Below are positions 11,050 to 53,789 of a DNA stretch of 53,998 nt, piece after piece. The stretch is from a virus (taxonomy: Duplodnaviria > Caudoviricetes). Position 1 is the stretch's first letter; each line of letters begins with the position of its first letter. The position numbers and the translations under genes are program-made. The stretch lies in the IMG/VR virus record IMGVR_UViG_3300020182_000047, positions 1 to 53,998 of that record; one strand, given 5' to 3'. Under the pieces are notes generated by a model. That model ran no database searches. It saw only the letters and a program-made list of their open reading frames with translations, and was not told the origin of the DNA.

Positions 11050-12609
11050 ATGTCAGACGCAATTGTCAAGAACCTAAGTTTCGGTAACGAAGCTAAGGAC
11101 AAAGTATTTGAAGGTATCACAAAACTCACAAAAGCCGTTAGCTCCACGCTCGGGGCTAGCGGTAAATGTGTGATGCTTGAAGATGGAAATGGAAGACCAA
11201 TTATAACAAAAGACGGTGTAACAGTAGCGGATAGTATTATACTATTAGACCCTGTAGAAAATATGGGGGCTACACTTTTAAAAGAAGCTGCTAGAAAAAC
11301 CGTAAGCGAAGCAGGTGATGGTACAACAACCGCAACTGTATTAGCGCACTCTATACTAACTGAAGCTTACAATGTAGCTGATAAGATTAGTTCAAGGGAT
11401 TTAAAAATAGGTATAGACAATGCCGTAGATAAAGTAGTTAAATACTTAGAATCAATATCAGTTGGTGTTAGCGGCGATATGATAGATCAAATTGCTACTA
11501 TATCAACAAACAATGACGCAGAGCTTGGTAAACTAATCGGTGATGCTTTTAGAGCAGTTGATGAAACAGGTGTGGTTATGATGGAGACATCGTCAGATGG
11601 CACCACAGCAGTAGAAATAGTTGACGGAGTACAATACAACAAAGGGCTAACGAACTCACATTTTGTTACAAGCAAAAGTCAAAGAGTTGCTGAATTAGAA
11701 AACCCTTATGTATTATTAGTTGAATCACCAATTGATAATATTAGACAAATTCAAAGCGTGCTAGAGTTTGTTATAAAAGGTAATAAGTCTTTACTTGTAA
11801 TTGCAGACATAGACCAACCAGTACTTGCAACTTTAGCAATGAATAAAGTTAAAGGTAATTTAAAGATTAATGTTATCAATGCGCCAACATATGGTGTAGC
11901 TAAAAAAGAAACATTAGATGATCTTGCAATGCTAACTGGTGCTACTATTATAAACGAAGACTTAGGAGATGATTTAGATTTAATTAATCCTCAATACCTA
12001 GGTAATTGTATAAAAAGTGTAACTACAGACGAAGAAACAATATTACAAGTTGGAGAAGTTTCAGAAGAGGTTCAAGATACTATAAAAGGTATTAAAGAAA
12101 AACTTGTTACAACTAAAGAGCCTTACGAAATAGTAAAACTTGAAAAAAGATTAGCGAGACTAGCGGCTAAAATAGCTATTGTAAAAGTTGGTGCTAATTC
12201 TGAAATTGAGTTAAAAGAAAAGAAAGATAGGGTAGAAGATGCTATCTGCGCAACTAAAGCCGCAATTAAAGAAGGTATTGTACCTGGGGGTGGTATTGCA
12301 CTACTAAACGCATCGGAAACAGTTAAAGCTAAAACAATAGGTGAAGAAGCTTTATTAGAGGCTATTAAGGCGCCATTTAAGACCATTTTAGAAAATGCAG
12401 GTATAGAGTATCAAGAATCTCTTAGAGGCAAAGGAATTGGTCTAAATGTAATAACTGGTAAAAAAGTTAATATGATCAAACACGGGATTATTGATCCATT
12501 ACTGGTTACTAAAAGTGCGCTTAGAAATGCAGCTTCAGTTGCTACAACTATTTTATCTACGGATTGTGTAATTAATAACTTAAGGGTAACGAATGAAAGC
12601 AATAGGTAG
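11050..12609 (+). CDS. groEL: Phage-encoded group I chaperonin GroEL
   Basis: ITKDGVTVA, AGDGTTTATVLA, KDRVEDA..ATKAA..EGIVPGGG and GIIDP motifs; no GGM tail. Confidence 0.97.
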   Translation: MSDAIVKNLSFGNEAKDKVFEGITKLTKAVSSTLGASGKCVMLEDGNGRPIITKDGVTVADSIILLDPVENMGATLLKEAARKTVSEAGDGTTTATVLAHSILTEAYNVADKISSRDLKIGIDNAVDKVVKYLESISVGVSGDMIDQIATISTNNDAELGKLIGDAFRAVDETGVVMMETSSDGTTAVEIVDGVQYNKGLTNSHFVTSKSQRVAELENPYVLLVESPIDNIRQIQSVLEFVIKGNKSLLVIADIDQPVLATLAMNKVKGNLKINVINAPTYGVAKKETLDDLAMLTGATIINEDLGDDLDLINPQYLGNCIKSVTTDEETILQVGEVSEEVQDTIKGIKEKLVTTKEPYEIVKLEKRLARLAAKIAIVKVGANSEIELKEKKDRVEDAICATKAAIKEGIVPGGGIALLNASETVKAKTIGEEALLEAIKAPFKTILENAGIEYQESLRGKGIGLNVITGKKVNMIKHGIIDPLLVTKSALRNAASVATTILSTDCVINNLRVTNESNR

Positions 12610-28439: not shown

Positions 28440-31400
28440 ATGGCTGAAATTAAAAATAATTTTATAAAAGCCAAGATGAACAAGGACCTGGACGACAGAC
28501 TTGTTCCTCCTGGAGAATATAGAAATGCTCAAAATATATCTATAAGTAGATCGGAAGGTTCTGATGTTGGTGCTTTAGAAAATATTTTGGGTAATTCTGT
28601 TATATCTTCTACTGTATTAAATATACCAAATATAGATGTTATAGGTTTTTTAACTGATAACGCTACGAATAATATATACTTGTTTTTAACAGACTATACC
28701 GATACTTCAGTTAGTGGTATATCTAATTTTGCGCCATCAAATGCAAACTGTATCGTATCAAGATACAACACTTCTACAAAAATATACACTAAACTTGTTC
28801 AAGGTAGATTTTTAAACTTTGCTAAAAACAATCCTATAATTGGTGTAAACATACTTGAAGATCTTTTATTCTTTACTGATAATAGAAATCAACCAAGAAA
28901 AATAAATGTTGACTTAGCTAATCCTAACAGTAGCTTAAGTCCAACTTACTATTCTAGTGAAGACACTATTTCTGTAGCAAAACCAGCGCCACTAGAAGCA
29001 ATAAAGCTGGTTAATATAGCTCAAGGATTACCATTAGAATCTACAATGATAAATCCTGCTCAAGAGTTTATGCCTGATGGTACTACACCAAACCCTGATT
29101 ACAATGCTAGCTGGGCTGGTGATCCTAATTTTTTACAAGATAAATTCGTAAGATTTAGTTATAGATATAAGTTTGATGATGGAGAATATTCTTTAATGGC
29201 TCCATTTACACAAACATGTTTTATACCTAAGCAACAAGGTTATTTTTTAGATGGTGATCAAGACGAAGCTTATAGAAGTACTATAGTACAGTTTGTAGAA
29301 AACAACGTAACACAAATAGGTTTAAATATACCTTTTCAAACTGAAAATCCAGAAACTGATTTACATATAAGTGAATTAGAAATAATATACAGAGAATCAG
29401 ATACAACAAATATAAAAGTTGTTGAGTCTATTCCTGTAAACTCTGTAGTTAATAAAATGAAGTCTAATGTAAACAAGAAGGTTTACAATTTTACCTACAT
29501 ATCTACAAAGCCGTATAAGACGCTGCCAGCTGATCAAGGCACTAGAGTTTATGATATAGTACCAGTTAGGGCTTTAGCTCAAGAGGTTTCAGGAAACAGG
29601 GTAATGTATGGTAACTTTTACGATAGAATGTCACCACCTAAGTCCATAGATTATGGCGTTGGTTATTCTTTAAAGCTACAAGACAGTCAAGTAGAATATC
29701 CTAACCACACTACAAAACAAAATAGAAACTATCAAGTTGGTATTGTTTTATCTGATAAATTTGGTAGACAATCTTCTGTTGTTTTATCTTCAAAAGATAC
29801 AGGAGAAAATGAAGAAGGAATACAATACGGTGGGTCAACTATATACTTACCTTATTTTAATGGAAATCTATCAGATATATTAAGTTGGCCAGGTTACGCA
29901 TTAAGAGTTTTATTTAATTCTCCAATACCTTCTAATTTAAATATAGAAGGTTATCCTGGTTTATATAGCGAAACTAATCCATTAGGTTGGTATTCATATA
30001 AAGTAGTTGTTAGACAACAAGAGCAGGATTATTACAATGTGTTTTTGCCTGGTATATTAAACGGTTATCCGAATGGCACTACTAATTTTAACACTGAGGT
30101 TGATCAAACAGCTAACATCGTACTAATAAACGATAATATAAATAAAATTCCAAGGGATTTATCTGAGGTTGGTCCTGATCAAAGGCAATATAGAAGTAGT
30201 GTGCAAATATTTGGTAGAGTAACACCAGATCCTTTGGATTCTACTTTAAACAAACAATACAAACCTGGTATATTATCTGATACTGTAGTTTCAATATCCA
30301 CAGTAAACGATACTAACTATAATGAAACACAAGGAGTAGATTTAGTATATCCTGAATTTTATCAAAGTGAAACTAATCCACTTATAGGTAGAATAAGTAC
30401 GCAGCAATCTATAGGCGTTGTTGGTAGTGCTACATATAATATAACTTTAGGTATCTATGAAACTTCACCTGTTGTTTCATTGCTTGATATATACTGGGAG
30501 ACCAGTACAACTGGTTTAATATCAGAATTAAATCAAGCTATAAACTCTGGATTTGTTGGACCTTATTTTATTAACTTAAATAATGGTTATAATCAAAACG
30601 AAGGTATGGCGTCCGGCACTAAAATAGTTACTGGAGCTTTCACGGAAGACAGCAGTAATGTCCCTATAACAACTCAAGTAAACTTTAGTTTTGCTTCTGT
30701 TATTGATGGCAATGGAGTAAATAGAACTAATGAATTTACATTATCTAAAACACCTAACTCAGCTTATCAATTTGATATAGCTACAAATAGTTTGTTTTAT
30801 TATGGATCTAACTCATCTTATGATTTAAGAAATAGATCTTTTACTTTTACAATTAACTGTCAAGATGTAATAGGCGGAACGACAGAGCAATTACAATTTA
30901 CAGGTTCAGTTCAAAATGTGGCTCCAACAATAACTAACTGTGTGACAGAATTATTAAACAGAGTAGATTTAAACGATCCTTGGACTATTTACACTTTTCA
31001 AGGAAACAATGGTTCTTTAGTGGACTCAACACAAGGATTAACGTGGAGTATATCAAGCGTTAGTTATAACGGAGAAGCTATAGAAAACAATAATTTATTT
31101 GTTATAAATGAAACATCTGGTGTTTTGACAAATCCTAACGGAACAGCAGAACAAGAAGGTAATTATCAAATAACAGTCAATTTAGAAGATGCTGGAGGAT
31201 TAACTTCTGATCCATGCGAATTAAAAGTTACATTTGGCGACTTACAAGTTACAACAAGGTACTTTAACTTAACTACTCCGCATGCTGGAGAGTGGGTGTT
31301 AGAATGGGAACAATTTAATAAATTTTATCAAACACTTCAAGGCCCAGCGCCAAACGGCGTACAGGACACTAGAATTTTTGATGTTCCTGCTAACAACACA

Positions 31401-31985
31401 ATGACAGCAAACGTTATATTGTTAAATAGTAGTTTACTTTACACAACTACATATAAATTTATAGAAGATGATGTTATTTTAGATACACAAACAAAATCTT
31501 CTGGATTTAGCGGAACTGTTTCATATACTTTTAACAACGTTAAAGCACTATCTGATTATAGAGTTTCTGTGGAATACGGCGTTACTGATGTTACTACATA
31601 CTATGGTTTGAAGAAATGTGAAACTGGGCAATCAGGATTTAGATCTACACAAACCACAGCGCAACAACCAGGTTTAGTTGATGATGATCAAGTTTTAGGA
31701 TTAGATGGATTTTACTATACTATAGATGGTCTTGTTACTAACCCAGTTAGTGGAGGTATAGGATTTACTGTTACAGGCGAAAGATATTGTCCTCCAGTAT
31801 ATAACTACTATATATTAAAACCAGCTTGTTATAGTTCATCTCAAGAGTTATATGTTAAATCTTTAGACAACTTAAACAAGGGAGAAAACATTAGAGTCTT
31901 TAGCAATTGCTACGATGTTTACGATATTGATCCTCAAAAAAGAGGTACTCAAGACGTGACTGGCGCAAGCGAATGTAGTTGTTAA
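28440..31985 (+). CDS. Tail stabilization/nozzle protein, N-terminal part with appended Ig-like and Cys-rich domains
   Basis: KMNKDLDDRL.PPGEYRNAQN, LLFFTDN.NQPRKIN and FVRFSYRYKF.DGEYS motifs. Confidence 0.7.
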   Translation: MAEIKNNFIKAKMNKDLDDRLVPPGEYRNAQNISISRSEGSDVGALENILGNSVISSTVLNIPNIDVIGFLTDNATNNIYLFLTDYTDTSVSGISNFAPSNANCIVSRYNTSTKIYTKLVQGRFLNFAKNNPIIGVNILEDLLFFTDNRNQPRKINVDLANPNSSLSPTYYSSEDTISVAKPAPLEAIKLVNIAQGLPLESTMINPAQEFMPDGTTPNPDYNASWAGDPNFLQDKFVRFSYRYKFDDGEYSLMAPFTQTCFIPKQQGYFLDGDQDEAYRSTIVQFVENNVTQIGLNIPFQTENPETDLHISELEIIYRESDTTNIKVVESIPVNSVVNKMKSNVNKKVYNFTYISTKPYKTLPADQGTRVYDIVPVRALAQEVSGNRVMYGNFYDRMSPPKSIDYGVGYSLKLQDSQVEYPNHTTKQNRNYQVGIVLSDKFGRQSSVVLSSKDTGENEEGIQYGGSTIYLPYFNGNLSDILSWPGYALRVLFNSPIPSNLNIEGYPGLYSETNPLGWYSYKVVVRQQEQDYYNVFLPGILNGYPNGTTNFNTEVDQTANIVLINDNINKIPRDLSEVGPDQRQYRSSVQIFGRVTPDPLDSTLNKQYKPGILSDTVVSISTVNDTNYNETQGVDLVYPEFYQSETNPLIGRISTQQSIGVVGSATYNITLGIYETSPVVSLLDIYWETSTTGLISELNQAINSGFVGPYFINLNNGYNQNEGMASGTKIVTGAFTEDSSNVPITTQVNFSFASVIDGNGVNRTNEFTLSKTPNSAYQFDIATNSLFYYGSNSSYDLRNRSFTFTINCQDVIGGTTEQLQFTGSVQNVAPTITNCVTELLNRVDLNDPWTIYTFQGNNGSLVDSTQGLTWSISSVSYNGEAIENNNLFVINETSGVLTNPNGTAEQEGNYQITVNLEDAGGLTSDPCELKVTFGDLQVTTRYFNLTTPHAGEWVLEWEQFNKFYQTLQGPAPNGVQDTRIFDVPANNTMTANVILLNSSLLYTTTYKFIEDDVILDTQTKSSGFSGTVSYTFNNVKALSDYRVSVEYGVTDVTTYYGLKKCETGQSGFRSTQTTAQQPGLVDDDQVLGLDGFYYTIDGLVTNPVSGGIGFTVTGERYCPPVYNYYILKPACYSSSQELYVKSLDNLNKGENIRVFSNCYDVYDIDPQKRGTQDVTGASECSC

Positions 31986-32014: not shown

Positions 32015-33412
32015 ATGGCAGCATCAATAGAAGTATCATACTTTAATTCGTTTTGGTTAAAACAGGTTCGCAATTCAAGTGGTGGGGTTGTTTGGCCAAA
32101 CGGTTACCCGTATCAAAACGCTTTTCCTGGAACTGCTACAGCTGGAGACAATAACTGGTTTATTGAAGAATCTAGAATTAGAGGTGGTTATAATAATACA
32201 CAAGTAGATTTAGGTGTAAAAGCATACCTAGTTGAAAATGAATCTCAACAACAACATCGTTCTAACGCTTTAATATACTCAGGTATATTTAATTCAAGAA
32301 CTGGTGTTAATAATACAAATCAATTTTCAGTAGGTGAGAGTATAACTAAAGCCACAGATCCAGCTAATGGATCAATACAAAAGCTTTATGCTGAAGATAC
32401 AAACCTAATAGTGTTTCAAGAAAACAAAGTTAGTAGAGCTTTAATAGATAAAGACGCTATATACTCTGCTGAAGGAAATGCGGCCGTAACATCAACGCAG
32501 TTAGTAATAGGACAAATAGTTCCTTACGCTGGTAACTTTGGTATAAGTAGAAACCCAGAAAGTTTTGCTGTATATGGTTATCAAAAGTATTTTGCAGATA
32601 AAGATAGAAACGCTATATTAAGATTATCAGTTGATGGATTAACTGAAATATCTGGATACGGGATGTCTGATTACTTTAGAGACAATTTAAGCAGTGTAGG
32701 TGAGTCAGGTAAAATCATAGGTGGCTATGATATTTACAATAAAAACTACACTTTATCTTTGCAGAAAACACCTGCTTGGCAAGAAAATACTGATAACGCT
32801 TCTAACTATGCAACTTTAACTTTTGATGAGTTAGTGAATGGTTGGAATAGTTTTTATACTTATAAGCCTACAGCTATAGGAAGCCTTAAGAATAAGTTTT
32901 ATAGTTTTAAAAATGGTTCTATATACGAGCATTACACAAACTATAACGGTAATAATAGAGGTTATTTCTATGGTTCTTACGCGCCGTCAAATATAACTTT
33001 TATATTTAACGAAAATTCCTCTGTATCTAAAAACTTCCAAACAGTAAACTATGAAGGTGATAATGGCTGGCAAGTTACAAGTTTTAAGTCAGACGCTCAA
33101 AGATATGATTATGTAAATAATGGCTGGGTTAGCTATGATGATAAGACTGCTCAAGTACCTAGCTATAGTCAAACGTACAACGATGGTGGAGTTGTATATA
33201 GACTTGGATTTGACAGAATAGAAAATAAATACTTTGCAAACTTAATAAACAATAGTACGCCAAGAGATGGTGAAGTTGTTTGGGGTAATGAAATGTCTGG
33301 TATTAAAGGATATTTTGCTACTGTTACTTTTTCAACAGATGCAATAACAGATGTTGGAGGAGCAAAAGAATTATGGAGCGTTGGATCAAAATTTGTAGTA
33401 TCAAGTTATTAA
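32015..33412 (+). CDS. Tail stabilization/nozzle protein, C-terminal-like part
   Basis: GSIQKLYAEDTNL..FQENKV, GISRNPESFA.YG and GW.SFY.Y.P beta-propeller-like motifs. Confidence 0.7.
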   Translation: MAASIEVSYFNSFWLKQVRNSSGGVVWPNGYPYQNAFPGTATAGDNNWFIEESRIRGGYNNTQVDLGVKAYLVENESQQQHRSNALIYSGIFNSRTGVNNTNQFSVGESITKATDPANGSIQKLYAEDTNLIVFQENKVSRALIDKDAIYSAEGNAAVTSTQLVIGQIVPYAGNFGISRNPESFAVYGYQKYFADKDRNAILRLSVDGLTEISGYGMSDYFRDNLSSVGESGKIIGGYDIYNKNYTLSLQKTPAWQENTDNASNYATLTFDELVNGWNSFYTYKPTAIGSLKNKFYSFKNGSIYEHYTNYNGNNRGYFYGSYAPSNITFIFNENSSVSKNFQTVNYEGDNGWQVTSFKSDAQRYDYVNNGWVSYDDKTAQVPSYSQTYNDGGVVYRLGFDRIENKYFANLINNSTPRDGEVVWGNEMSGIKGYFATVTFSTDAITDVGGAKELWSVGSKFVVSSY

Positions 33413-35809: not shown

Positions 35810-38800
35810 ATGTACGAATATAACGGTCGCCCAATTACTTTGGAGCAAATTCAAAGTGCAGCACAGAAATCAAATTTAAGTGTTGAAGAATATATTGCCA
35901 AAGCCGGCATAGTTACCAAAAGTGAAGAGCCGGGAAAGACAACAAGCCAGGGACAGGGTGCGCCTGTGGCGGGAACTGCAGCACCCGAAGTTCAAGCAGA
36001 AGGTACGGATTCTACATTGGAAGATGGTTCTTTGGAATTAGAAGAAATTAGCTTAGAAGAAAAAAAGAGCTTACCATATTCCGTAAGAAATAGAATATCT
36101 TCTACAAATGGCGACTTTTCAAGAGGCAATGTTAATTCAATATTAAAAACATTAAATCTTAAAAAATTAGATGTTAAAGATTTTGAAACTAAAAAAATAA
36201 ACGAAAACTACGATAAAGAATACGCAATATTTAAAGAAAATCAAGAAGATCCAGCCAGGATGACCGCCTTGAGGGAAGCTAAAATAGATTTATTAGCTCC
36301 TAGAATTGATAAAACAATTTTAAAAAGTAAGTTAAATCAAGCGTTAGTAGATGTTGAAATTACTAGCGACGAAATGCAAGAAACAAAGCGCCAAGAAATT
36401 TATGGCATGGCTATAGCTGCGGATAAATATTTGTCTCAAGACTTGCCTGCAGACATTATTAAGGCTTATTCTAAGGAAATAAATATTAAAAGAGATCAAT
36501 TATCTAATAAGTATGATTTAACCACACAAGAAGGCTTTGATAAGGCTAATAATGAATATAATGCATTTATAGATAACGTAGTTCAGGCAGGGTGGAATTC
36601 AAATCAAACCGCACAAGAAAGAAACGCATTATTATTAAATACTTTAGGAGAAGTTTTATCTCTTAAGGCTACAAATTATACTAGAAAAACAGAGTTAGGA
36701 CTTGGACCTTTAGATGATAATTATACTAAAGGCGAAACTATGGAAGAGGGCCTAAAAAAAGGGGCTAGACAAATAAAAGGCAGTGTAGAAAAATCTATAG
36801 CAGCTGGTATTCTTGAAAATATAAATAATTTACAAGATGAATTAAATAATTTACCTATAAATGAAAACGAAGTTGTTTCGTTTGGGGGCACAGAAATGCC
36901 TAGACAGGGTATTGTTTCTGGAGGCAAAAGCGGCACTGTAAAAGAGGCCAAAAAATTTTATGAAAATAAAATATTAGAATTAAAAAAAGATGCTTTAAGC
37001 AAAGTTGTAAATGTAAAAGAGGAAGAAAAAATTCAGCAAGCATTTAGACAAGCAAGTCTTACTGATGGGAATGTAACTCTCGACGACATTCTTTTGTTAG
37101 CCTCAGAGCAAGCACTGCAGCTTCCTTTAGCAGCGCTTACATATGGGGTTGGTACTTTTGCGCAGGAATTTGGCACGTCGTATTTTGACAACATTGACGC
37201 TTATATTGAAAACAATAAATTAAATCCAGCGTTAAAAGAGCAATTAAAGAAAAAAGAAATTACTCAAGAAGAATATGATTCCGCTTTAAACGCTTTAAGA
37301 ACTCCTGAAAATATTTTAGAAGCTTCTGAAAAAGGGGGAGGAAGTTTTGAAAATGCATTAGCTGTAGGTATAGGAAATTCTGCTTTAGAATATATTGGAG
37401 CAAGCACTATAGCAAAAGGAATATTTGGCAAAGAAGCAGCAAAAAAAGGAATAACAAGCCTTGTAAACGATGGATTTAAAAAATATATAAAATCTAAAAC
37501 CTTGCAGGGAAGCGTTGAAAATATTACAAAATCTGGTTTTGTTGAATTTTTAACAGAATCATTTCAAACCGCTTCAAGTCAATTAGGTAAAGGAGCAAGC
37601 GTTGATGATCCTTTTAAATATATTAATATAGAAGAAATAAAAGAGTCCGCCGTTTCAGGTGGTGTAATTGGAGCATTGTTTCCGTTTGCTGCAGGCGGGT
37701 CTAAAGCAACATTTAGAGAAAGCATAAATACTGCTAAAAAAATAGCAGCTAATTTTAATGAAGAGGCTACTTCAAATTATTTGGATTTAGCAATAAAAGA
37801 AATTAAACAATCTAATGTTTTATCTGCAGTAGAGAAAGAGCAGCAATTGGAAGCAGTTGCTGAAGTTAGAAACGCTAATGTTAAGATTCCTTCATTTATA
37901 AAGGGAGACGCTAAAGTAGAGGCATTAAATCTTATAATAGAAAAAAAATCTTTAGAAAAAATTATTTCTGAAGCGGATCCAAATTTAGTTGTTGAAGAAA
38001 AAGCTAGGGTAGAAGAAATAAATAAAAAAATACAAGACGTTGCTGTAAAATCAAAAATAACTGAGCTTGGAGAAAAAGATATTGCTCAAGCTAAAAAAAT
38101 AACAGAGCAACTACCCGAGTTAAAAACGGTTGTAAAAGATTTTAATACAACAGCGGAACTTGAAGAAGAATTAAAAAATCAAGGTAAATCAGAAGCAGAA
38201 GCAAAAAAACTTTCTGATGACTTTGGATTTATAGTGCAAAAAAAAGATGGCACACAAGAAATATATATAAACAAAGAAATATCTTTTGATTCAGGAGTAG
38301 CTACCACGGCGCAACACGAGGTGCTTCATTCTGTATTAAAAAACCTTATACCAGGAAATATTGCTCTTGGGCAAAACTTAAAAGATTTTGTAGAAGAGAT
38401 TGCTGGAGACGGGTTTATGGGCACTGAGTTTTCAAAAAGATTTGAAAGCTATGAGCTTCAATATGAAGATAAAATAAACCAATTAAATTCGCAACTAGAA
38501 AAAAACGAAATATCTGAAGATGAGTTTTCAACCAAAGCTAAGTCTGCTTTAGAGAACATGTGGGAGGAAACCATGCCGTTATTATCCGAGTCCCTTACAA
38601 GAGGCGATATAGACTCTAAAGCTACAATATTTGAAAAGCTTAAAGATTTCTTTAATAGAATATTTAATACATCAAATATTAAAAACGTAAAATTCAATAC
38701 AGGTGAAGATGTATTTAATTTTATAAAAGACTACAATAAAATATATAAGTCCGGTAGAGGAATTAAAACATTAAAAAATGTAGTTCAAGGACAAGTAGAG

Positions 38801-41800
38801 GGAGAATTAATTTCAAATAAAAAAGCCGAAATTGAAGAGGTTGTAAAATCTTCGTCTAGAGAATTAGCTTCTGACAAAGTTCAAAAAATATACGACGAGC
38901 AAGGCATTGCAGGTATATATGAAATAATGGACGAGTATAAACCAATGGCCAAAAAAATTGCTGAAAAATACAGAGATAGGCCTGGTTTTACGACTTATAA
39001 AGAAGATTTAGTTACAGGCATATTAGACGACCCTACGTATGGGGTTATGGGATTAGCTTTAAAATACAACCCGCAAGAAAACGAAGGCGTGCCATTGGCT
39101 GCATATATAAATAAGTATTTAGCGGCAAGAAGTATAACAATCGCAAACCAGCTTTTAGGCAAAGACGAAGCAAGTACTTTTAAATCTGACGTTGCTGAAG
39201 TTAAAGATGTTACCGCTACAGAAACAGCAGAAGACGCAATATTAGCTTCAGAGGAAATTGCAAAAGAAAAGCCAAAAACAAAAAAGAAGTTAATATCTGA
39301 GCAAATAACTTTTAACAATGAGCTAGACGAGGCTATGAACAATGCCTTAAAAAAAGGTATTGCTCTAAATATTAAAAAGTTTGATATTGAAACTACTAAA
39401 AATAGAACAATAACTCCTTTTATAGCTGATCTTAAAAAGGACTTGTCCGATTTTTTAGAAAAAGATCTTGTTAAATTTATTAAATCAGAAGGGTTAGATA
39501 GCTTTTTAATTAGCAATAGAGAAACTTTACTTGATAATTTAACTACAACATTTTTATCTAAACATCCATTTTTTAGAAAAGGTATACTTAAAAGAGTCAA
39601 TAGAGAATGGGTTGCTCCTACTAAAATTAACACGTATAAATACGATTGGATTGACAGTAAGGGCGATAAACTTAAAATTGATAGAGACAATGCTGCAGGC
39701 CGCGGGATGACTTCTGGTCCTGAGTTTATTAAAAGAAATCCTAAAATAAAAGAAATTGTAAAAGAAAACGAATTTGTAGATTATCATTTTCAAGACGGAG
39801 CATTAAGAAATAAAGCAAAGCAAAATCCAGTAGCATCTATAGCAAGGCAAATAGCCGCTGAAAAAGGGTTTGAAATTCTTAAAGATGATTTATTAAATAA
39901 TGGTGATTTAACTAAAACTATTAAAGAAAGAGCTGATTTATATGGCATAATTATTTCAGAAGTAGAAGGCCAGCAAATTGCTAAAGATATTGATAGAGGT
40001 ATAGTTAAGTTTTCTAAAAAAGTTGAATTTGAAAGCAATAGCGCTAAATTTTCTAAAAAGTTTAACAACGCAAGAAAATTAGTTATAAAAGTTGGCATAG
40101 ATGGTCAAAAATATAATGACTATATAGCTTCACTACCTAAAGAGGAAGGGCGGCTTATTCATGACAGAATTAATGACATGCTAGGCGCAATACAAGAAAT
40201 GTCCGACATAGAAGCCTCAAATCAAGGAATAAAATTTGAAGAAGTTGTTAAAAAAATTATATCTAAAAACCCTGAATTAGAAGGTAAAATATCTATAATT
40301 TATAATCCTAATCAAGGAGGAAGTTCTAATCAAGGACAAGGTGACCTTACTTTAGATATTTTAGGCACCAAAATAAACTTTGAGCTAAAGCTTAATGAAA
40401 ATGCTTTAATGGGTTCTTTTACTGCAAAATTAAAAGAAAATGGCGAAATAGAATTTACAAAAGAATCACCTGTTAATAAAAAAATAGCTGAATATTTAAA
40501 TAAAAATAAAGAAGCTAGATATAATTATATTAAAAGAGCAAAGGAAATTTTAGGTTCAAACGCTAAAAATTACGATTTAAAAGTTTTTCCTCCAAAACTT
40601 CCTGAATATGTTTATTCTCAACTTAGGAACGAAGGTTTACAAAATAAAGTTGGATTTACTATTTCAAATTCTAAAACAGAAATTAATATACCTAATAATT
40701 TAATTTCTGAATTTTACTTAGACAAAGGTGTTGATTATATACAAGTAGGTAATATAGGATTATTCCATACCGGGAACAACCCCCTAAACTTACCAATCCC
40801 TGCATTTAATTTTAATACAAAAATAACGGCTAGAATGACTTCCTCTAGCTCACAAAAGAAAGGCCAAGAAAAATTGTATTCTGGACCAATCAGGATATTT
40901 ATGAAGTTAGACCAAAGTATACCTTTGTCAAATATGTCTCTTGTGTCTAATAGCTCTTTAAAGGCTATTATGGCAATGGCTGAAGAGCAGCTTAATAAAG
41001 ATGAGTCAATAAAGTCAAGCAAAAAAACAATTAGTTCAATGAATACGACTATCAATGAAATGATAGAGCGTAAAAAAGGTATTCTTGCTACTGAAACTAT
41101 TTCTGAAGCTACCGCAAAATTACAAGGAGCTAAGAAAGGTAAAGGTAAGATTTTTGTACCGCCTTCAGCGGATGATCTTGTTGGATTACTTTACAACTTT
41201 TTAGGCACTGGAAAGCAAGGAGATGCTGATATGGCATTTTTTGAAGAAAAGTTATTAAAACCTTTAGCAAGAGCGAACTTTGATTTAAATAAAGAAAGAC
41301 AGTTTGTAAAACAAGGATACCACAACTTAATAAAAGCTAACAAAGGTATTAATAAAAAGCTTAGAAAAGAAAGTGATTATAAATACTACACAAATGATGC
41401 CGCTGTAAGAGTGTTTATGTGGACAAGACTTGGATATGATATACCGGGAATAAACGCGGCAGATAAAAAAGCTTTAATAAATGCTGTTTTAAAAGATAAA
41501 GATTTATTAAAATTTGCAGAAGAACTTATATCTGTTCCAAACAAAAAAGAAAGTTGGCTACAACCTGAGGATGCTTGGACTGCTAGCACTATTGAAATGG
41601 ACTTGCAGGAAATACTGAGTAAAATTGGTAGAGCAAGAATATTTGAAGAATATATTACAAATGCAAATATTATATTTTCAAAAGATAATATAAATAAAAT
41701 TGAAGCAGCTTACGGGCCTAACTTAAGAAATGCTTTAGAGGATATGCTTTATCGCATTGAAAAAGGAAGAGCAAGAGAGATTGGTACTAACAAAATGGCC

Positions 41801-43096
41801 AATACTTATTTGAACTGGGTTAGGGGATCTGTTGCTACAACCATGTTCTTTAACATGCGTTCAGCTTTGCTGCAACAACTCTCTATTGTCAACTTTACAA
41901 ACTGGGAAGACAACAATATTTTTGCTCAAGGAAAGTTTATAGCTACGAAGCCTAAAGAATATGCTAGATACTGGGTTAAGATATTTAACTCTGACTGGAT
42001 GAAGGAGCGTAGACAAGGATTAAAAACAGATATAAACGAGTCTGAGCTTGTTGCTAGGTTAGAAGGCAGCAAAAATAAAAACAAAGCTTTATTAGCTTAT
42101 ATCTTAGAAAAAGGATTTTCACTTACTAAATATGGAGACAACATTGCAATAGCAACAGGTGGAGCGCCATTTTTATATAATAGAGAACAAAAGTATATTA
42201 AAGAGGGAATGACTGAAGCTAAAGCTAAAGAAGAAGCTTTTTTAGACTTTCAAGAATTAGCTGAAAGAACGCAACAGTCTTCAAGACAAGATTTATTATC
42301 TAATCAACAAGTAAGCGTTATTGGAAGAATATTCTTAGCATTCCAAAACACTACTATGCAAATGACCCGCTTGCAAAAGAAAGCTGTTTTAGATATAATA
42401 AACAAAAGGGGTAGTTTTAAAGCAAATGTATCAAGACTTGTTTATTATGGAGCAATTCAAAACAGTATATTTTCATTTTTACAAAGCGCATTATTTGCAG
42501 CATTTTTTACTGATGACGAAGAAGAAAAAGATGAACTAAAAATTGACAACAAAACATTTAGGGCTATTAATACTGTTTTAGATAGTGCCTTAAGAGGTTC
42601 TGGTATTGGTGGTGCGGCTTTGTCTACTCTTAAAAATGCAACAATTGCATGGATGCGTGAAAATGATAAAGGATTTACTGGGCAAAATGGGAAGGTTATT
42701 TTAGAACTGCTAAACATATCGCCAGCTGTTGGAATTAAAGCTCGTAAAATTTACGGGGCAATGGAAAATTACAAGTTCAACAAAAAAATACTTGATAAAA
42801 TAGGTTATGATAATCCAAACCACCCTTATTATGGTATAGCTGGTAACTTAGCTTCTGCAGCTTTTAATATTCCTTTAGATAGAATTGTTACTAAAGCATC
42901 AAATATTAAAGCAATGACGCAGCAAGACGCGGAGGCTTGGCAAAGAACAGCGTTGTTTATGGGTTATAACACTTGGGATTTAGGATTAAAAGATCCGGAA
43001 ATAGAAGCAGCGAAAAATAAATCAAAAAAATCATCCCCTAAAAGAGGGTTGAAAAAGAAAGGATTTGGGTCTGGATTAAAAAAGAAAAAACTTTAA
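35810..43096 (+). CDS. Giant multidomain (polyvalent) internal virion protein, 2428 aa
   Basis: Last gene of the ejection cluster; contains HEVLH, a sigma region-2-like segment, a D-x12-ELK nuclease-like segment and a helical C-terminal region. Confidence 0.65.
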   Translation: MYEYNGRPITLEQIQSAAQKSNLSVEEYIAKAGIVTKSEEPGKTTSQGQGAPVAGTAAPEVQAEGTDSTLEDGSLELEEISLEEKKSLPYSVRNRISSTNGDFSRGNVNSILKTLNLKKLDVKDFETKKINENYDKEYAIFKENQEDPARMTALREAKIDLLAPRIDKTILKSKLNQALVDVEITSDEMQETKRQEIYGMAIAADKYLSQDLPADIIKAYSKEINIKRDQLSNKYDLTTQEGFDKANNEYNAFIDNVVQAGWNSNQTAQERNALLLNTLGEVLSLKATNYTRKTELGLGPLDDNYTKGETMEEGLKKGARQIKGSVEKSIAAGILENINNLQDELNNLPINENEVVSFGGTEMPRQGIVSGGKSGTVKEAKKFYENKILELKKDALSKVVNVKEEEKIQQAFRQASLTDGNVTLDDILLLASEQALQLPLAALTYGVGTFAQEFGTSYFDNIDAYIENNKLNPALKEQLKKKEITQEEYDSALNALRTPENILEASEKGGGSFENALAVGIGNSALEYIGASTIAKGIFGKEAAKKGITSLVNDGFKKYIKSKTLQGSVENITKSGFVEFLTESFQTASSQLGKGASVDDPFKYINIEEIKESAVSGGVIGALFPFAAGGSKATFRESINTAKKIAANFNEEATSNYLDLAIKEIKQSNVLSAVEKEQQLEAVAEVRNANVKIPSFIKGDAKVEALNLIIEKKSLEKIISEADPNLVVEEKARVEEINKKIQDVAVKSKITELGEKDIAQAKKITEQLPELKTVVKDFNTTAELEEELKNQGKSEAEAKKLSDDFGFIVQKKDGTQEIYINKEISFDSGVATTAQHEVLHSVLKNLIPGNIALGQNLKDFVEEIAGDGFMGTEFSKRFESYELQYEDKINQLNSQLEKNEISEDEFSTKAKSALENMWEETMPLLSESLTRGDIDSKATIFEKLKDFFNRIFNTSNIKNVKFNTGEDVFNFIKDYNKIYKSGRGIKTLKNVVQGQVEGELISNKKAEIEEVVKSSSRELASDKVQKIYDEQGIAGIYEIMDEYKPMAKKIAEKYRDRPGFTTYKEDLVTGILDDPTYGVMGLALKYNPQENEGVPLAAYINKYLAARSITIANQLLGKDEASTFKSDVAEVKDVTATETAEDAILASEEIAKEKPKTKKKLISEQITFNNELDEAMNNALKKGIALNIKKFDIETTKNRTITPFIADLKKDLSDFLEKDLVKFIKSEGLDSFLISNRETLLDNLTTTFLSKHPFFRKGILKRVNREWVAPTKINTYKYDWIDSKGDKLKIDRDNAAGRGMTSGPEFIKRNPKIKEIVKENEFVDYHFQDGALRNKAKQNPVASIARQIAAEKGFEILKDDLLNNGDLTKTIKERADLYGIIISEVEGQQIAKDIDRGIVKFSKKVEFESNSAKFSKKFNNARKLVIKVGIDGQKYNDYIASLPKEEGRLIHDRINDMLGAIQEMSDIEASNQGIKFEEVVKKIISKNPELEGKISIIYNPNQGGSSNQGQGDLTLDILGTKINFELKLNENALMGSFTAKLKENGEIEFTKESPVNKKIAEYLNKNKEARYNYIKRAKEILGSNAKNYDLKVFPPKLPEYVYSQLRNEGLQNKVGFTISNSKTEINIPNNLISEFYLDKGVDYIQVGNIGLFHTGNNPLNLPIPAFNFNTKITARMTSSSSQKKGQEKLYSGPIRIFMKLDQSIPLSNMSLVSNSSLKAIMAMAEEQLNKDESIKSSKKTISSMNTTINEMIERKKGILATETISEATAKLQGAKKGKGKIFVPPSADDLVGLLYNFLGTGKQGDADMAFFEEKLLKPLARANFDLNKERQFVKQGYHNLIKANKGINKKLRKESDYKYYTNDAAVRVFMWTRLGYDIPGINAADKKALINAVLKDKDLLKFAEELISVPNKKESWLQPEDAWTASTIEMDLQEILSKIGRARIFEEYITNANIIFSKDNINKIEAAYGPNLRNALEDMLYRIEKGRAREIGTNKMANTYLNWVRGSVATTMFFNMRSALLQQLSIVNFTNWEDNNIFAQGKFIATKPKEYARYWVKIFNSDWMKERRQGLKTDINESELVARLEGSKNKNKALLAYILEKGFSLTKYGDNIAIATGGAPFLYNREQKYIKEGMTEAKAKEEAFLDFQELAERTQQSSRQDLLSNQQVSVIGRIFLAFQNTTMQMTRLQKKAVLDIINKRGSFKANVSRLVYYGAIQNSIFSFLQSALFAAFFTDDEEEKDELKIDNKTFRAINTVLDSALRGSGIGGAALSTLKNATIAWMRENDKGFTGQNGKVILELLNISPAVGIKARKIYGAMENYKFNKKILDKIGYDNPNHPYYGIAGNLASAAFNIPLDRIVTKASNIKAMTQQDAEAWQRTALFMGYNTWDLGLKDPEIEAAKNKSKKSSPKRGLKKKGFGSGLKKKKL
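35932..35986 (+). other. Candidate -1 programmed frameshift signal
   Basis: In-frame G GGA AAG, a 7-nt spacer, then a GC-rich stem-loop/pseudoknot. Confidence 0.5.
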
Positions 43097-43115: not shown

Positions 43116-43388
43116 ATGGAACCATTAATTATTATTTTAGGATTATCAATATTATTAAACATTGTATTAGGCTTTATGCACTTAGGCAAAATTAAAGATG
43201 CCGATAAAGACTTTATACCTGATGCTATTGAAGATAAAGCAGCTAAGGTAAAAGAACAAACCATGCATCGTTTAGGAAGAATTAAAGAAGAGTTAGCCGA
43301 TGTAGGTGCTGCTATTAAAGAAGTTGGGAATCAAATTGGCGATTTACCAGATGCAGCAAAAGGTAAAACAAGAAAAGGTAGAAAATAA
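43116..43388 (+). CDS. Small membrane-anchored protein
   Basis: N-terminal TM helix, DADKDFIPD loop, coiled coil and basic tail. Confidence 0.65.
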   Translation: MEPLIIILGLSILLNIVLGFMHLGKIKDADKDFIPDAIEDKAAKVKEQTMHRLGRIKEELADVGAAIKEVGNQIGDLPDAAKGKTRKGRK

Positions 43389-53027: not shown

Positions 53028-53789
53028 TCAAAGATAATCAATTACTTGCGAAGAATCTACATTTTCTATTAATTTTTGCACTGCTTGTTTCTTTATTTCA
53101 GAAATTCTTACATATGCACTTGATCCTTCTATATTTAATATTTCTGCTATTTTATTTGCAGAGTGTTTATCACAATTAAGTCCGTAGCTTAATCTTAATA
53201 CTTCAAATTCTCTTTTATCTAAATGCTTTTTTAATAGACTTGTTAAATATATATTAAGTAAAGCTATATTATAAGGTTCAGATTGATCTGGAATTTGATG
53301 CATCATATTTTCATCATCTTCATTAACTTGCTCGTCAATACTTAAGAATATAGAATTAAAAAACATAGCTACCATTGCTTTATCTTTACCTTCATCTTTT
53401 CTAATTTCATTTAGCTTATGCTCTGGTATTCTTATATCGCCTCTATTAATATCAATAGCTCTTCGTATTGACCCTTTTATTCTTTTTGATAGGAATGACT
53501 TTAATGTTTTTTCTGGGTCGTCAGATTCAGTTACTGTCTCCCAAATTATTTTGTCTACTGCTCTTATTAACCCAAGGGTTCCATCTTGAATAAGATCTGT
53601 AATATCCATAACACCTGATGCTTGATCTGAAGTTGAAAACTTCCTAGCAATGTTCTCTACCAATGGCAGGAAAGTAACAATTAGTTCGTCTCGTGTGTAA
53701 TCTTGAAATGCTTTAAACTCAATTAAATTAATTGATGCTTTAACATCATCTTTATACCTCACATAATTGCGAATGTTGTACTTTTTCAT
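53028..53789 (-). CDS. Phage sigma70-family RNA polymerase sigma factor
   Basis: LPLVENIARKF..DLIQDG.LGLIRAVDK (region 2), IRIP, and LDKREFEVLRLSYGL..IAEILNI (region 4). Confidence 0.88.
   Translation of the reverse strand: MKKYNIRNYVRYKDDVKASINLIEFKAFQDYTRDELIVTFLPLVENIARKFSTSDQASGVMDITDLIQDGTLGLIRAVDKIIWETVTESDDPEKTLKSFLSKRIKGSIRRAIDINRGDIRIPEHKLNEIRKDEGKDKAMVAMFFNSIFLSIDEQVNEDDENMMHQIPDQSEPYNIALLNIYLTSLLKKHLDKREFEVLRLSYGLNCDKHSANKIAEILNIEGSSAYVRISEIKKQAVQKLIENVDSSQVIDYL

Follow-up and report, generated by a model that had tools for sequence, protein, structure and literature searches.

The frameshift that yields the tail assembly chaperones G/GT of phage lambda uses the heptamer G_GGA_AAG, near the 3′ end of a small gene. 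The same heptamer is found at codon 42 of a gene of 2428 codons in a marine crAss-like phage, known from a virus record of IMG/VR type (53,998 bases, estimated to be 84% complete); this whole stretch of DNA is called the window here. On sequence grounds it is highly probable that the site directs a programmed -1 ribosomal frameshift early in this giant gene, giving a protein of 80 amino acids (aa), and the window phage and about a hundred relatives very probably make such a small protein by a backward slip.

The likeness to lambda comprises the identical heptamer, two products with a common N-terminal part and different C-terminal parts, and a place in a late structural operon. In lambda, however, G/GT belongs to a long-tailed phage, is flanked by the genes for the tail tube and the tape measure, and the shift gives the longer of the two products, whereas here the site is close to the start of a very long gene and the shifted product is shorter. 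No sequence family (Pfam/PHROG) is common to these proteins and gpG/gpGT. The comparison with lambda made in the initial annotation of the window thus holds for the heptamer but not for its position, the direction of the size difference, the gene context or the sequence family. Identity with a lambda-type G/GT tail assembly chaperone was ruled out by gene position, the shorter shifted product and the lack of a family match.

Other known systems share other features. In Escherichia coli dnaX (tau/gamma) a truncating -1 shift also occurs within a long open reading frame (ORF), on A_AAA_AAG (the site in 7 of 110 relatives here) and with a downstream stem, but the -1 frame of dnaX ends after one codon and an upstream Shine-Dalgarno-like element helps, whereas here 37 conserved -1 codons encode a domain. 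The orfA-orfB shifts of the IS3 family (IS911, IS150) and the shift of Bacillus subtilis cdd (CGA_AAG) have in common with the present sites a lysine slip on A_AAA_AAG or NNA_AAG and a downstream hairpin or pseudoknot, but they give fusion proteins extending into a second long ORF and are not in virion genes. The closest analogy in outcome is with RNA viruses, whose small trans-frame proteins, alphavirus TF and cardiovirus 2B* among them, are short products that share their N-terminus with a large protein and acquire a new C-terminal peptide via a -1 shift, although these are proteins of eukaryotic RNA viruses and are unrelated in sequence.

No description of this frameshift was found in the literature on crAss-like phages or Crassvirales combined with frameshifting, slippery sites or pseudoknots (subscription journals lay mostly outside the scope of the search), which agrees with the earlier statement that none was known. 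In the passages covered, a 2026 preprint on a Segatella crassvirus mentions frameshifting in general terms only, and the PRFect paper (PMC10885494) does not mention 'crAss'. The mechanism is canonical; the gene, the product and the phage group are new. If the reading is true, it adds a new and widespread family of phage recoding sites, represented in public viral contigs by 110 distinct copies and equipped with a stimulator stem that covaries and probably a pseudoknot, and a small protein, invisible to gene callers, in abundant uncultured marine crAss-like phages.

The proposed slip site and the frame under selection

The giant gene (35810-43096, on the + strand, as are all of its features given below) has its ATG at 35810. 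Codons 41-43 read CCG GGA AAG and place the slippery heptamer G_GGA_AAG (35932-35938) in X_XXY_YYZ phase. It is followed by an A/C spacer of 7 nucleotides (nt; 35939-35945), which separates it from the first stem of a GC-rich block; GC content is 0.65 at 35930-35989 and about 0.3 nearby. Upstream, the -1 frame is closed by a TGA (35923-35925) two codons before the heptamer, and no start codon is present from this TGA to the -1 stop. Entered at the heptamer, the -1 ORF (35932-36051) has 39 codons and then TAG (36049-36051). Read in the 0 frame, the overlap contributes no more than a Gly/Ala/Pro/Thr-rich linker to the giant protein. The phased heptamer at codons 41-43, the -1 peptide with its stop ending at 36051 and its total of 80 aa, and the GC-rich island in an AT-rich gene had all been noted before this analysis and were borne out by it.

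In the proposed mechanism, translation would start at 35810 and a fraction of the ribosomes would slip back by one base on the heptamer. The slip would be a tandem one, with tRNA-Gly and tRNA-Lys re-pairing from GGA_AAG to GGG_AAA over the structured block, and the GC-rich structure 7 nt downstream, probably an H-type pseudoknot, would help it. Slipped ribosomes would read 37 further -1 codons and stop at 36051. Their product would begin like the giant protein, with its first 43 residues, and continue with a cysteine cluster and then a basic and aromatic tail predicted to form a β-hairpin, while non-slipping ribosomes would make the 2428-aa protein. The occurrence of the slip is what we infer from the sequence.

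The heptamer by itself means little and is no rarity: the giant gene contains 30 in-phase X_XXY_YYZ heptamers. Homologues were collected without regard to their 5′ ends: 20 loci were fetched with a conserved mid-gene query (window 39365-39901) and gave, with the window, 16 distinct 5′ ends. All 16 have an in-phase G_GGA_AAG at codon 40-46. The codon before the site is CCG, ACG, GCG, GTG, GAG or AAG, standing for six amino acids but always ending in G, a base demanded by the heptamer and not by the protein. In all 16 the last closure of the -1 frame is 0-8 codons before the heptamer, and from the heptamer 38-44 codons are then open. In length this run ranks from first to fourth in each of the 14 genes not cut by a contig end, which have 305-371 -1 runs with a median of 4-5 codons (L007 and L010, which are cut, have 167 and 283 -1 runs), and only 0.15-2.4% of in-phase positions are equally open. 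What exceeds chance is the conservation, not the presence, of the heptamer and the open -1 frame. The comparison of homologous 5′ ends that had been suggested as a check thus found the phased slippery site, the open -1 frame and a YGxxIGRWFFG-like tail all kept.

The family was then widened in two ways. An alignment of the C-terminal block of the giant protein gave 49 viral loci with 33-95% identity; in 31 of these the tail motif is present in the -1 frame, at most 900 nt from the beginning of the ORF that contains the block, and in 34 it is somewhere upstream on the + strand. IMG/VR was also scanned for the tail pattern in any frame, which gave 103 relatives, 80 of which were kept. The resulting wide set consists of 149 fetched loci and the window (2.3 Mb); loci L072-L151 in it were chosen by the tail and are therefore informative on frame, site and RNA, and not on conservation of the tail. 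The + strand has 135 instances of the tail motif, a single one in each locus that has any, and the - strand has none. Without duplicates there are 110 distinct copies, every one of them in the -1 frame of a long ORF; 76 of these ORFs are complete, with lengths of 339-3353 aa (median 2452). The distance from the opening of the -1 frame to the likely site has a median of 4 codons and is at most 10 codons in 94 copies. The likely sites are GGGAAAG in 55 copies, AAAAAAA in 14, AAAAAAG in 7, GGGTTTT in 2 and GGGAAAA, GGGAAAC or GGGAAAT in 3 (81 together), with other canonical heptamers in a further 4. Such exchange among known slippery words across a family is what a real recoding site would be expected to show.

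These data bear on whether the -1 ORF could be an independent overlapping gene with its own initiation. Phages do have overlapping genes, but ATG, GTG and TTG are absent from the -1 frame in 13 of the 16 homologues, the remaining three having only a TTG at codon 31, and an ATG at least 10 codons before the tail is found in just 3 of the 110 copies (any of the three start codons in 6). The -1 frame also opens close to the site, and five database proteins described below join the N-terminal domain to the tail. Independent initiation is, on this evidence, scarcely credible.

The frame under selection was identified from the ratio of non-synonymous to synonymous variation (pN/pS). Over the overlap the -1 frame has a pN/pS of 0.70 (16 sequences) or 0.52 (the 13 gap-free ones), and the 0 frame has 1.13-1.14; over the tail the corresponding -1 values are 0.50 and 0.37, against 1.28 and 1.02 in the 0 frame. 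Variation in the overlap is concentrated at the third position of the -1 codons. A mid-gene control in the same genes gave 0.29 in the 0 frame versus 1.63 in the -1 frame, and none of the 49 windows, each 108 nt long, showed the reverse order. For the part before the site, 5 homologues with the same class of N-terminal domain gave 0.47 for the 0 frame, against 1.15 for the -1 frame. As judged from the ratios upstream, in the overlap and in the mid-gene control, purifying selection switches from the 0 frame to the -1 frame at the heptamer. The -1 frame is hence both reached by shifting only and under purifying selection, which marks a frameshift signal, and the view that the -1 peptide looked non-random is upheld, since it is the -1 frame and not the 0 frame that is constrained in the overlap. 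In L013, L014, L016 and L005 the 0-frame peptide is unrelated, yet the -1 peptide ends in the same aromatic motif.

A reading without recoding would take the conserved block as a nucleic-acid element in a tolerant linker, either a translation-pacing RNA structure or a recombination joint for N-terminal domains, with the open -1 frame as a by-product. It would fit the high nucleotide identity from the heptamer to stem 2 between phages with differing flanks, the modular nature of the N-terminal domains and the overlap of the cysteine codons with the stems. It would also fit the contigs of other metagenome runs, which match only an island of about 60 nt (35931-35994) and have unrelated flanks, as would a cassette common to mosaic genomes. 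The tail, however, lies 3′ of the stems and has -1-frame codon periodicity, with the low pN/pS of 0.37-0.50 given above; its peptide is kept in L013 and L005, where there is no relation in the nucleotides or in the 0-frame peptide; every distinct copy is in the -1 frame; and the slip site is located where that frame opens. An element of this kind acting without any frameshift is accordingly very improbable, and a programmed frameshift would itself account for an island so strikingly conserved between otherwise mosaic sequences.

Some loci of the wide set differ in arrangement. L036 and L037 have an in-phase GGGAAAG at codon 76 of the giant ORF (start 1562), after which the -1 frame is open for 62 codons but lacks the aromatic tail motif; a distant branch may have another trans-frame product here. 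In L041, L046 and L069 the giant gene is interrupted, and the C-terminal block is in an ORF separate from the 5′ part with the frameshift cassette.

Predicted RNA structure downstream of the site

Both pairings proposed in the initial annotation exist in the window. The 5′ arm of stem 1, GCCAGGG (35946-35952), can form 6 pairs and one central mismatch with the 3′ arm CTGTGGC (35964-35970). The 5′ arm of stem 2, GGGTGC (35956-35961), is within the loop of stem 1, and pairing with its 3′ arm GCACCC (35981-35986) would complete an H-type pseudoknot. Single-sequence folding gave z-scores of about 0 for the window, L003, L012 and L013, and RNAalifold applied to the window's clade alone recovered only GGGUGC/GCACCC, with no compensatory pair. 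Structural support emerged only after the family was widened.

For the family as a whole, GC content in the first 60 nt downstream of the site is 0.54 versus 0.33 elsewhere, the minimum free energy is -16.5 versus about -7 kcal/mol, and the mean z is -1.29 versus -0.24 to +0.09 at five control offsets. A simple stem finder was applied to 103 distinct sequences, with dinucleotide shuffles as the control. Stem 1 with at least 8 pairs was found in 73 of the 103 sequences and in 85 of 1030 shuffles, and in 50 of 96 sequences its start is 6 nt downstream of the site; when arms were swapped between sequences it fell from 8.7 to 4.9 pairs. Stem 2, formed by the loop of stem 1 with downstream sequence, had at least 6 pairs in 66 of the 103 sequences, against 3.1% of shuffles.

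Two alignments were used to look for covariation. The first (A6) contains 38 sequences in one register, picked by our own stem finder and not including the window. In it 91.9% of stem 1 cells pair, whereas shuffled sequences reach 72.7% and sliding the partner leaves 34-52%, and 9 of the 10 pairs have compensatory changes on both sides. On four of five measures the observed value was reached by 0 of 500 shuffles; on the fifth, the count of pairs changed on both sides, 5 of 500 reached it. The second alignment (A7) contains 27 sequences including the window, picked by a regular expression for both arms of stem 2; all 162 of 162 stem 2 cells are paired, with one G-C to A-U exchange in three sequences. 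Within the window's own clade stem 1 is paired in 78% of cells and stem 2 in 94.9%, and the window is a case of a weakened stem 1 with an intact stem 2.

A putative stimulatory stem 1 is thus well supported for the family by its covariation, while the H-type pseudoknot, in which stem 2 crosses it, is likely but less firmly shown. For the family this agrees with a canonical frameshift signal, in which a covarying structure lies 5-9 nt after the site; in the window itself the structure is weaker. The proposal of a pseudoknot therefore stands as regards a stem 1 that covaries across the family, but the support for stem 2 and the crossing is weaker and stem 1 is weak in the window's clade. No Rfam family matches the element.

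The predicted small product

The N-terminal domain common to both products (35810-35931) is modelled by AlphaFold2 as a small β-β-α-α fold. The model for the window's class of this domain has a predicted local distance difference test (pLDDT) score of 84.5, and a Foldseek search against the PDB gave a best E of 1.4, with no significant structural match. Among the relatives, the domains before the site fall into at least 5 unrelated classes and are from 29 to 245 aa long, while the cassette after the site is constant. The longest stretch before a slip site, 245 aa in L089, seems by eye to include a lysozyme-like stretch, which both products of that phage would carry.

The -1 part has a CxCxxxC cysteine cluster (35959-35979) and ends in the basic and aromatic tail (35998-36045). 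A β-hairpin is predicted for the tail with moderate confidence (residues 23-29 and 32-38 of the -1 part, pLDDT 75-78); the cysteine part is poorly modelled. There are 2-4 cysteines in the -1 part of 99 of the 110 copies and none in 6, so that the earlier description of a Cys-rich product applies to a cluster which is common but not universal.

The -1 part is 24-51 codons long in the 110 copies, with a median of 37. This constancy matters for the idea that the frameshift is real but serves to lower the output of the giant protein, the peptide having no function of its own. Truncating frameshifts can indeed set expression levels, following a dnaX-type logic, but a stop shortly after the site would suffice for that, and neither the constant length of the -1 part nor the purifying selection on its tail would be expected. 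There is, in our view, very little chance that down-regulation is the whole role.

A profile of the -1 peptide was searched against 1.84 billion proteins and gave seven matches. Five of these are proteins of 58-100 aa with the N-terminal domain, the cysteine cluster and the tail in one frame, which shows that this architecture is a plausible protein. Alignment of the -1 peptide revealed no longer homologue among proteins of 91-2000 aa. The N-terminal domain and the -1 peptide match no Pfam or PHROG family at E ≤ 1 beyond chance-level matches, the small database proteins have only sub-threshold ones, and in the Protein Atlas the best score for P0018 was 0.80, to zinc-ribbon clusters, which is below the level that counts.

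The single-frame proteins raise the possibility that the small protein arises from insertions or deletions, through RNA polymerase slippage or through genome subpopulations with an extra base. P0014, P0016 and P0018-P0021 are single-frame, and by eye P0020 and P0021 each seem to have one extra base relative to their near relatives L074 and L072; in addition, 21 of the 110 sites are A-runs of 6-7 bases. The apparent insertions, however, are at differing places outside homopolymers, polymerase slippage would not be efficient on a run as short as G3A3, and a shift is required in every one of the 110 distinct copies from the fetched contigs. No such indel was listed in the contigs of four sequencing runs, whose coverage was thin and consisted mostly of short pieces of relatives, none spanning the stretch. 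An origin by indels is consequently regarded as most unlikely.

Several points weigh against a programmed frameshift and were taken into account in judging it highly probable. As regards the slip site, 25 of the 110 copies have no canonical heptamer and only an NNA_AAG-like one, mainly G_GAA_AAG (12) and xGT_AAA_G (5). As regards the tail, 15 of the 49 loci found by the C-terminal block are without the motif; four of these lack the 5′ end and in one the start is unclear, but ten have intact 5′ ends, and by the counts in these 49 loci the frameshift feature is common but not universal in the gene family. The sequences are related, so that the counts are not independent, and L072-L151 were selected by the very motif that was then counted. 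The single-frame small proteins are singletons apart from one cluster of two members, and they may be assembly errors. Since the cysteine codons overlap the RNA stems, part of the conservation of cysteine may be at the RNA level.

The same holds for parts of the RNA evidence. In the window, the 62 nt after the site fold at -18.2 kcal/mol with a z of -0.01, no better than shuffles, and stem 1 is degenerate in its clade, where the centre pair is formed in 0 of 13 sequences. Both alignments, A6 and A7, were chosen for features of the stems that they were used to assess. When the arms of stem 2 were swapped between sequences 52% still paired, because the main variants are compatible via G-U pairs, and the compensatory support for this stem, one pair in three sequences, is thin. 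Finally, the sequencing runs listed as containing the sequence are 20 DNA runs in 14 studies, and no RNA run is among them.

The function of the small product can be addressed only tentatively. Because the N-terminal domain varies between phages while the frameshift cassette stays constant, this domain might be a shared address, and the small product might be an adaptor or anchor for the packaging, placement or release of the giant virion protein; we think this possible, although we would not expect it. An equally speculative extension is that, in a large clade of marine crAss-like phages, a portable cassette of slip site, pseudoknot, cysteine cluster and hairpin tail joins an exchangeable N-terminal domain to two fates, giant cargo or small anchor. 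A stoichiometric adaptor would then load, position or release the giant protein, and the chaperone logic of lambda G/GT would have been reinvented in short-tailed phages without a tape measure. An address domain common to the small protein and the giant structural protein would offer a route to study how giant proteins are packaged and delivered.

The giant gene and its genomic setting

The giant gene closes the + strand structural module of the window, which contains tail fibre proteins, a GroEL-like gene, TerL, portal, capsid and virion proteins and a muzzle protein (Pfam crAss_MUZ_C). Replication and nucleotide-metabolism genes are on the - strand. The Crassvirales marker set is present in one module, with matches of the portal to phrog_6547 (1.3e-146) and of TerL to phrog_6681 (4.2e-165); further crAss-type matches in the module are to phrog_13704, phrog_14478 and Pfam crAss_MUZ_C (4.6e-10). 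The window phage is classed as crAss-like by its portal, TerL, capsid and muzzle proteins, all found in this module.

It is from the position of its gene in the crAss-like structural module that we infer a 'virion' or 'ejection' role for the 2428-aa protein. The protein has only sub-threshold Pfam and PHROG matches, and searches of the PDB by sequence and profile gave nothing below E 0.9; this includes the crAss-like virion RNA polymerase (phi14:2 gp66 type), as no PDB chain was matched below that value. When the 5′ region, the mid-gene block and the C-terminal block were compared with a collection of phage GenBank entries, none of them gave a match as DNA or as protein, and a collection of genome contigs gave no match either. 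An HExxH motif in the giant protein (38315-38329) is almost invariant over 12 homologues and hints at a zincin-like peptidase domain, which no family model matches.

A few observations on neighbouring genes may be recorded. A 90-aa ORF directly 3′ of the giant gene (43116-43388) has an N-terminal hydrophobic helix-like stretch and could encode a membrane or lysis protein. The muzzle protein is seemingly split over two genes: the adjacent ORFs 28440-31985 and 32015-33412 match the N- and C-terminal parts of PHROG 14478, and crAss_MUZ_C is on the second. The GroEL-like chaperonin gene (11050-12609; phrog_5725, E 6.9e-134) lies upstream of the packaging genes, and a sigma-factor-like gene (53028-53789, - strand; phrog_351, E 4.4e-23) lies within the replication module.

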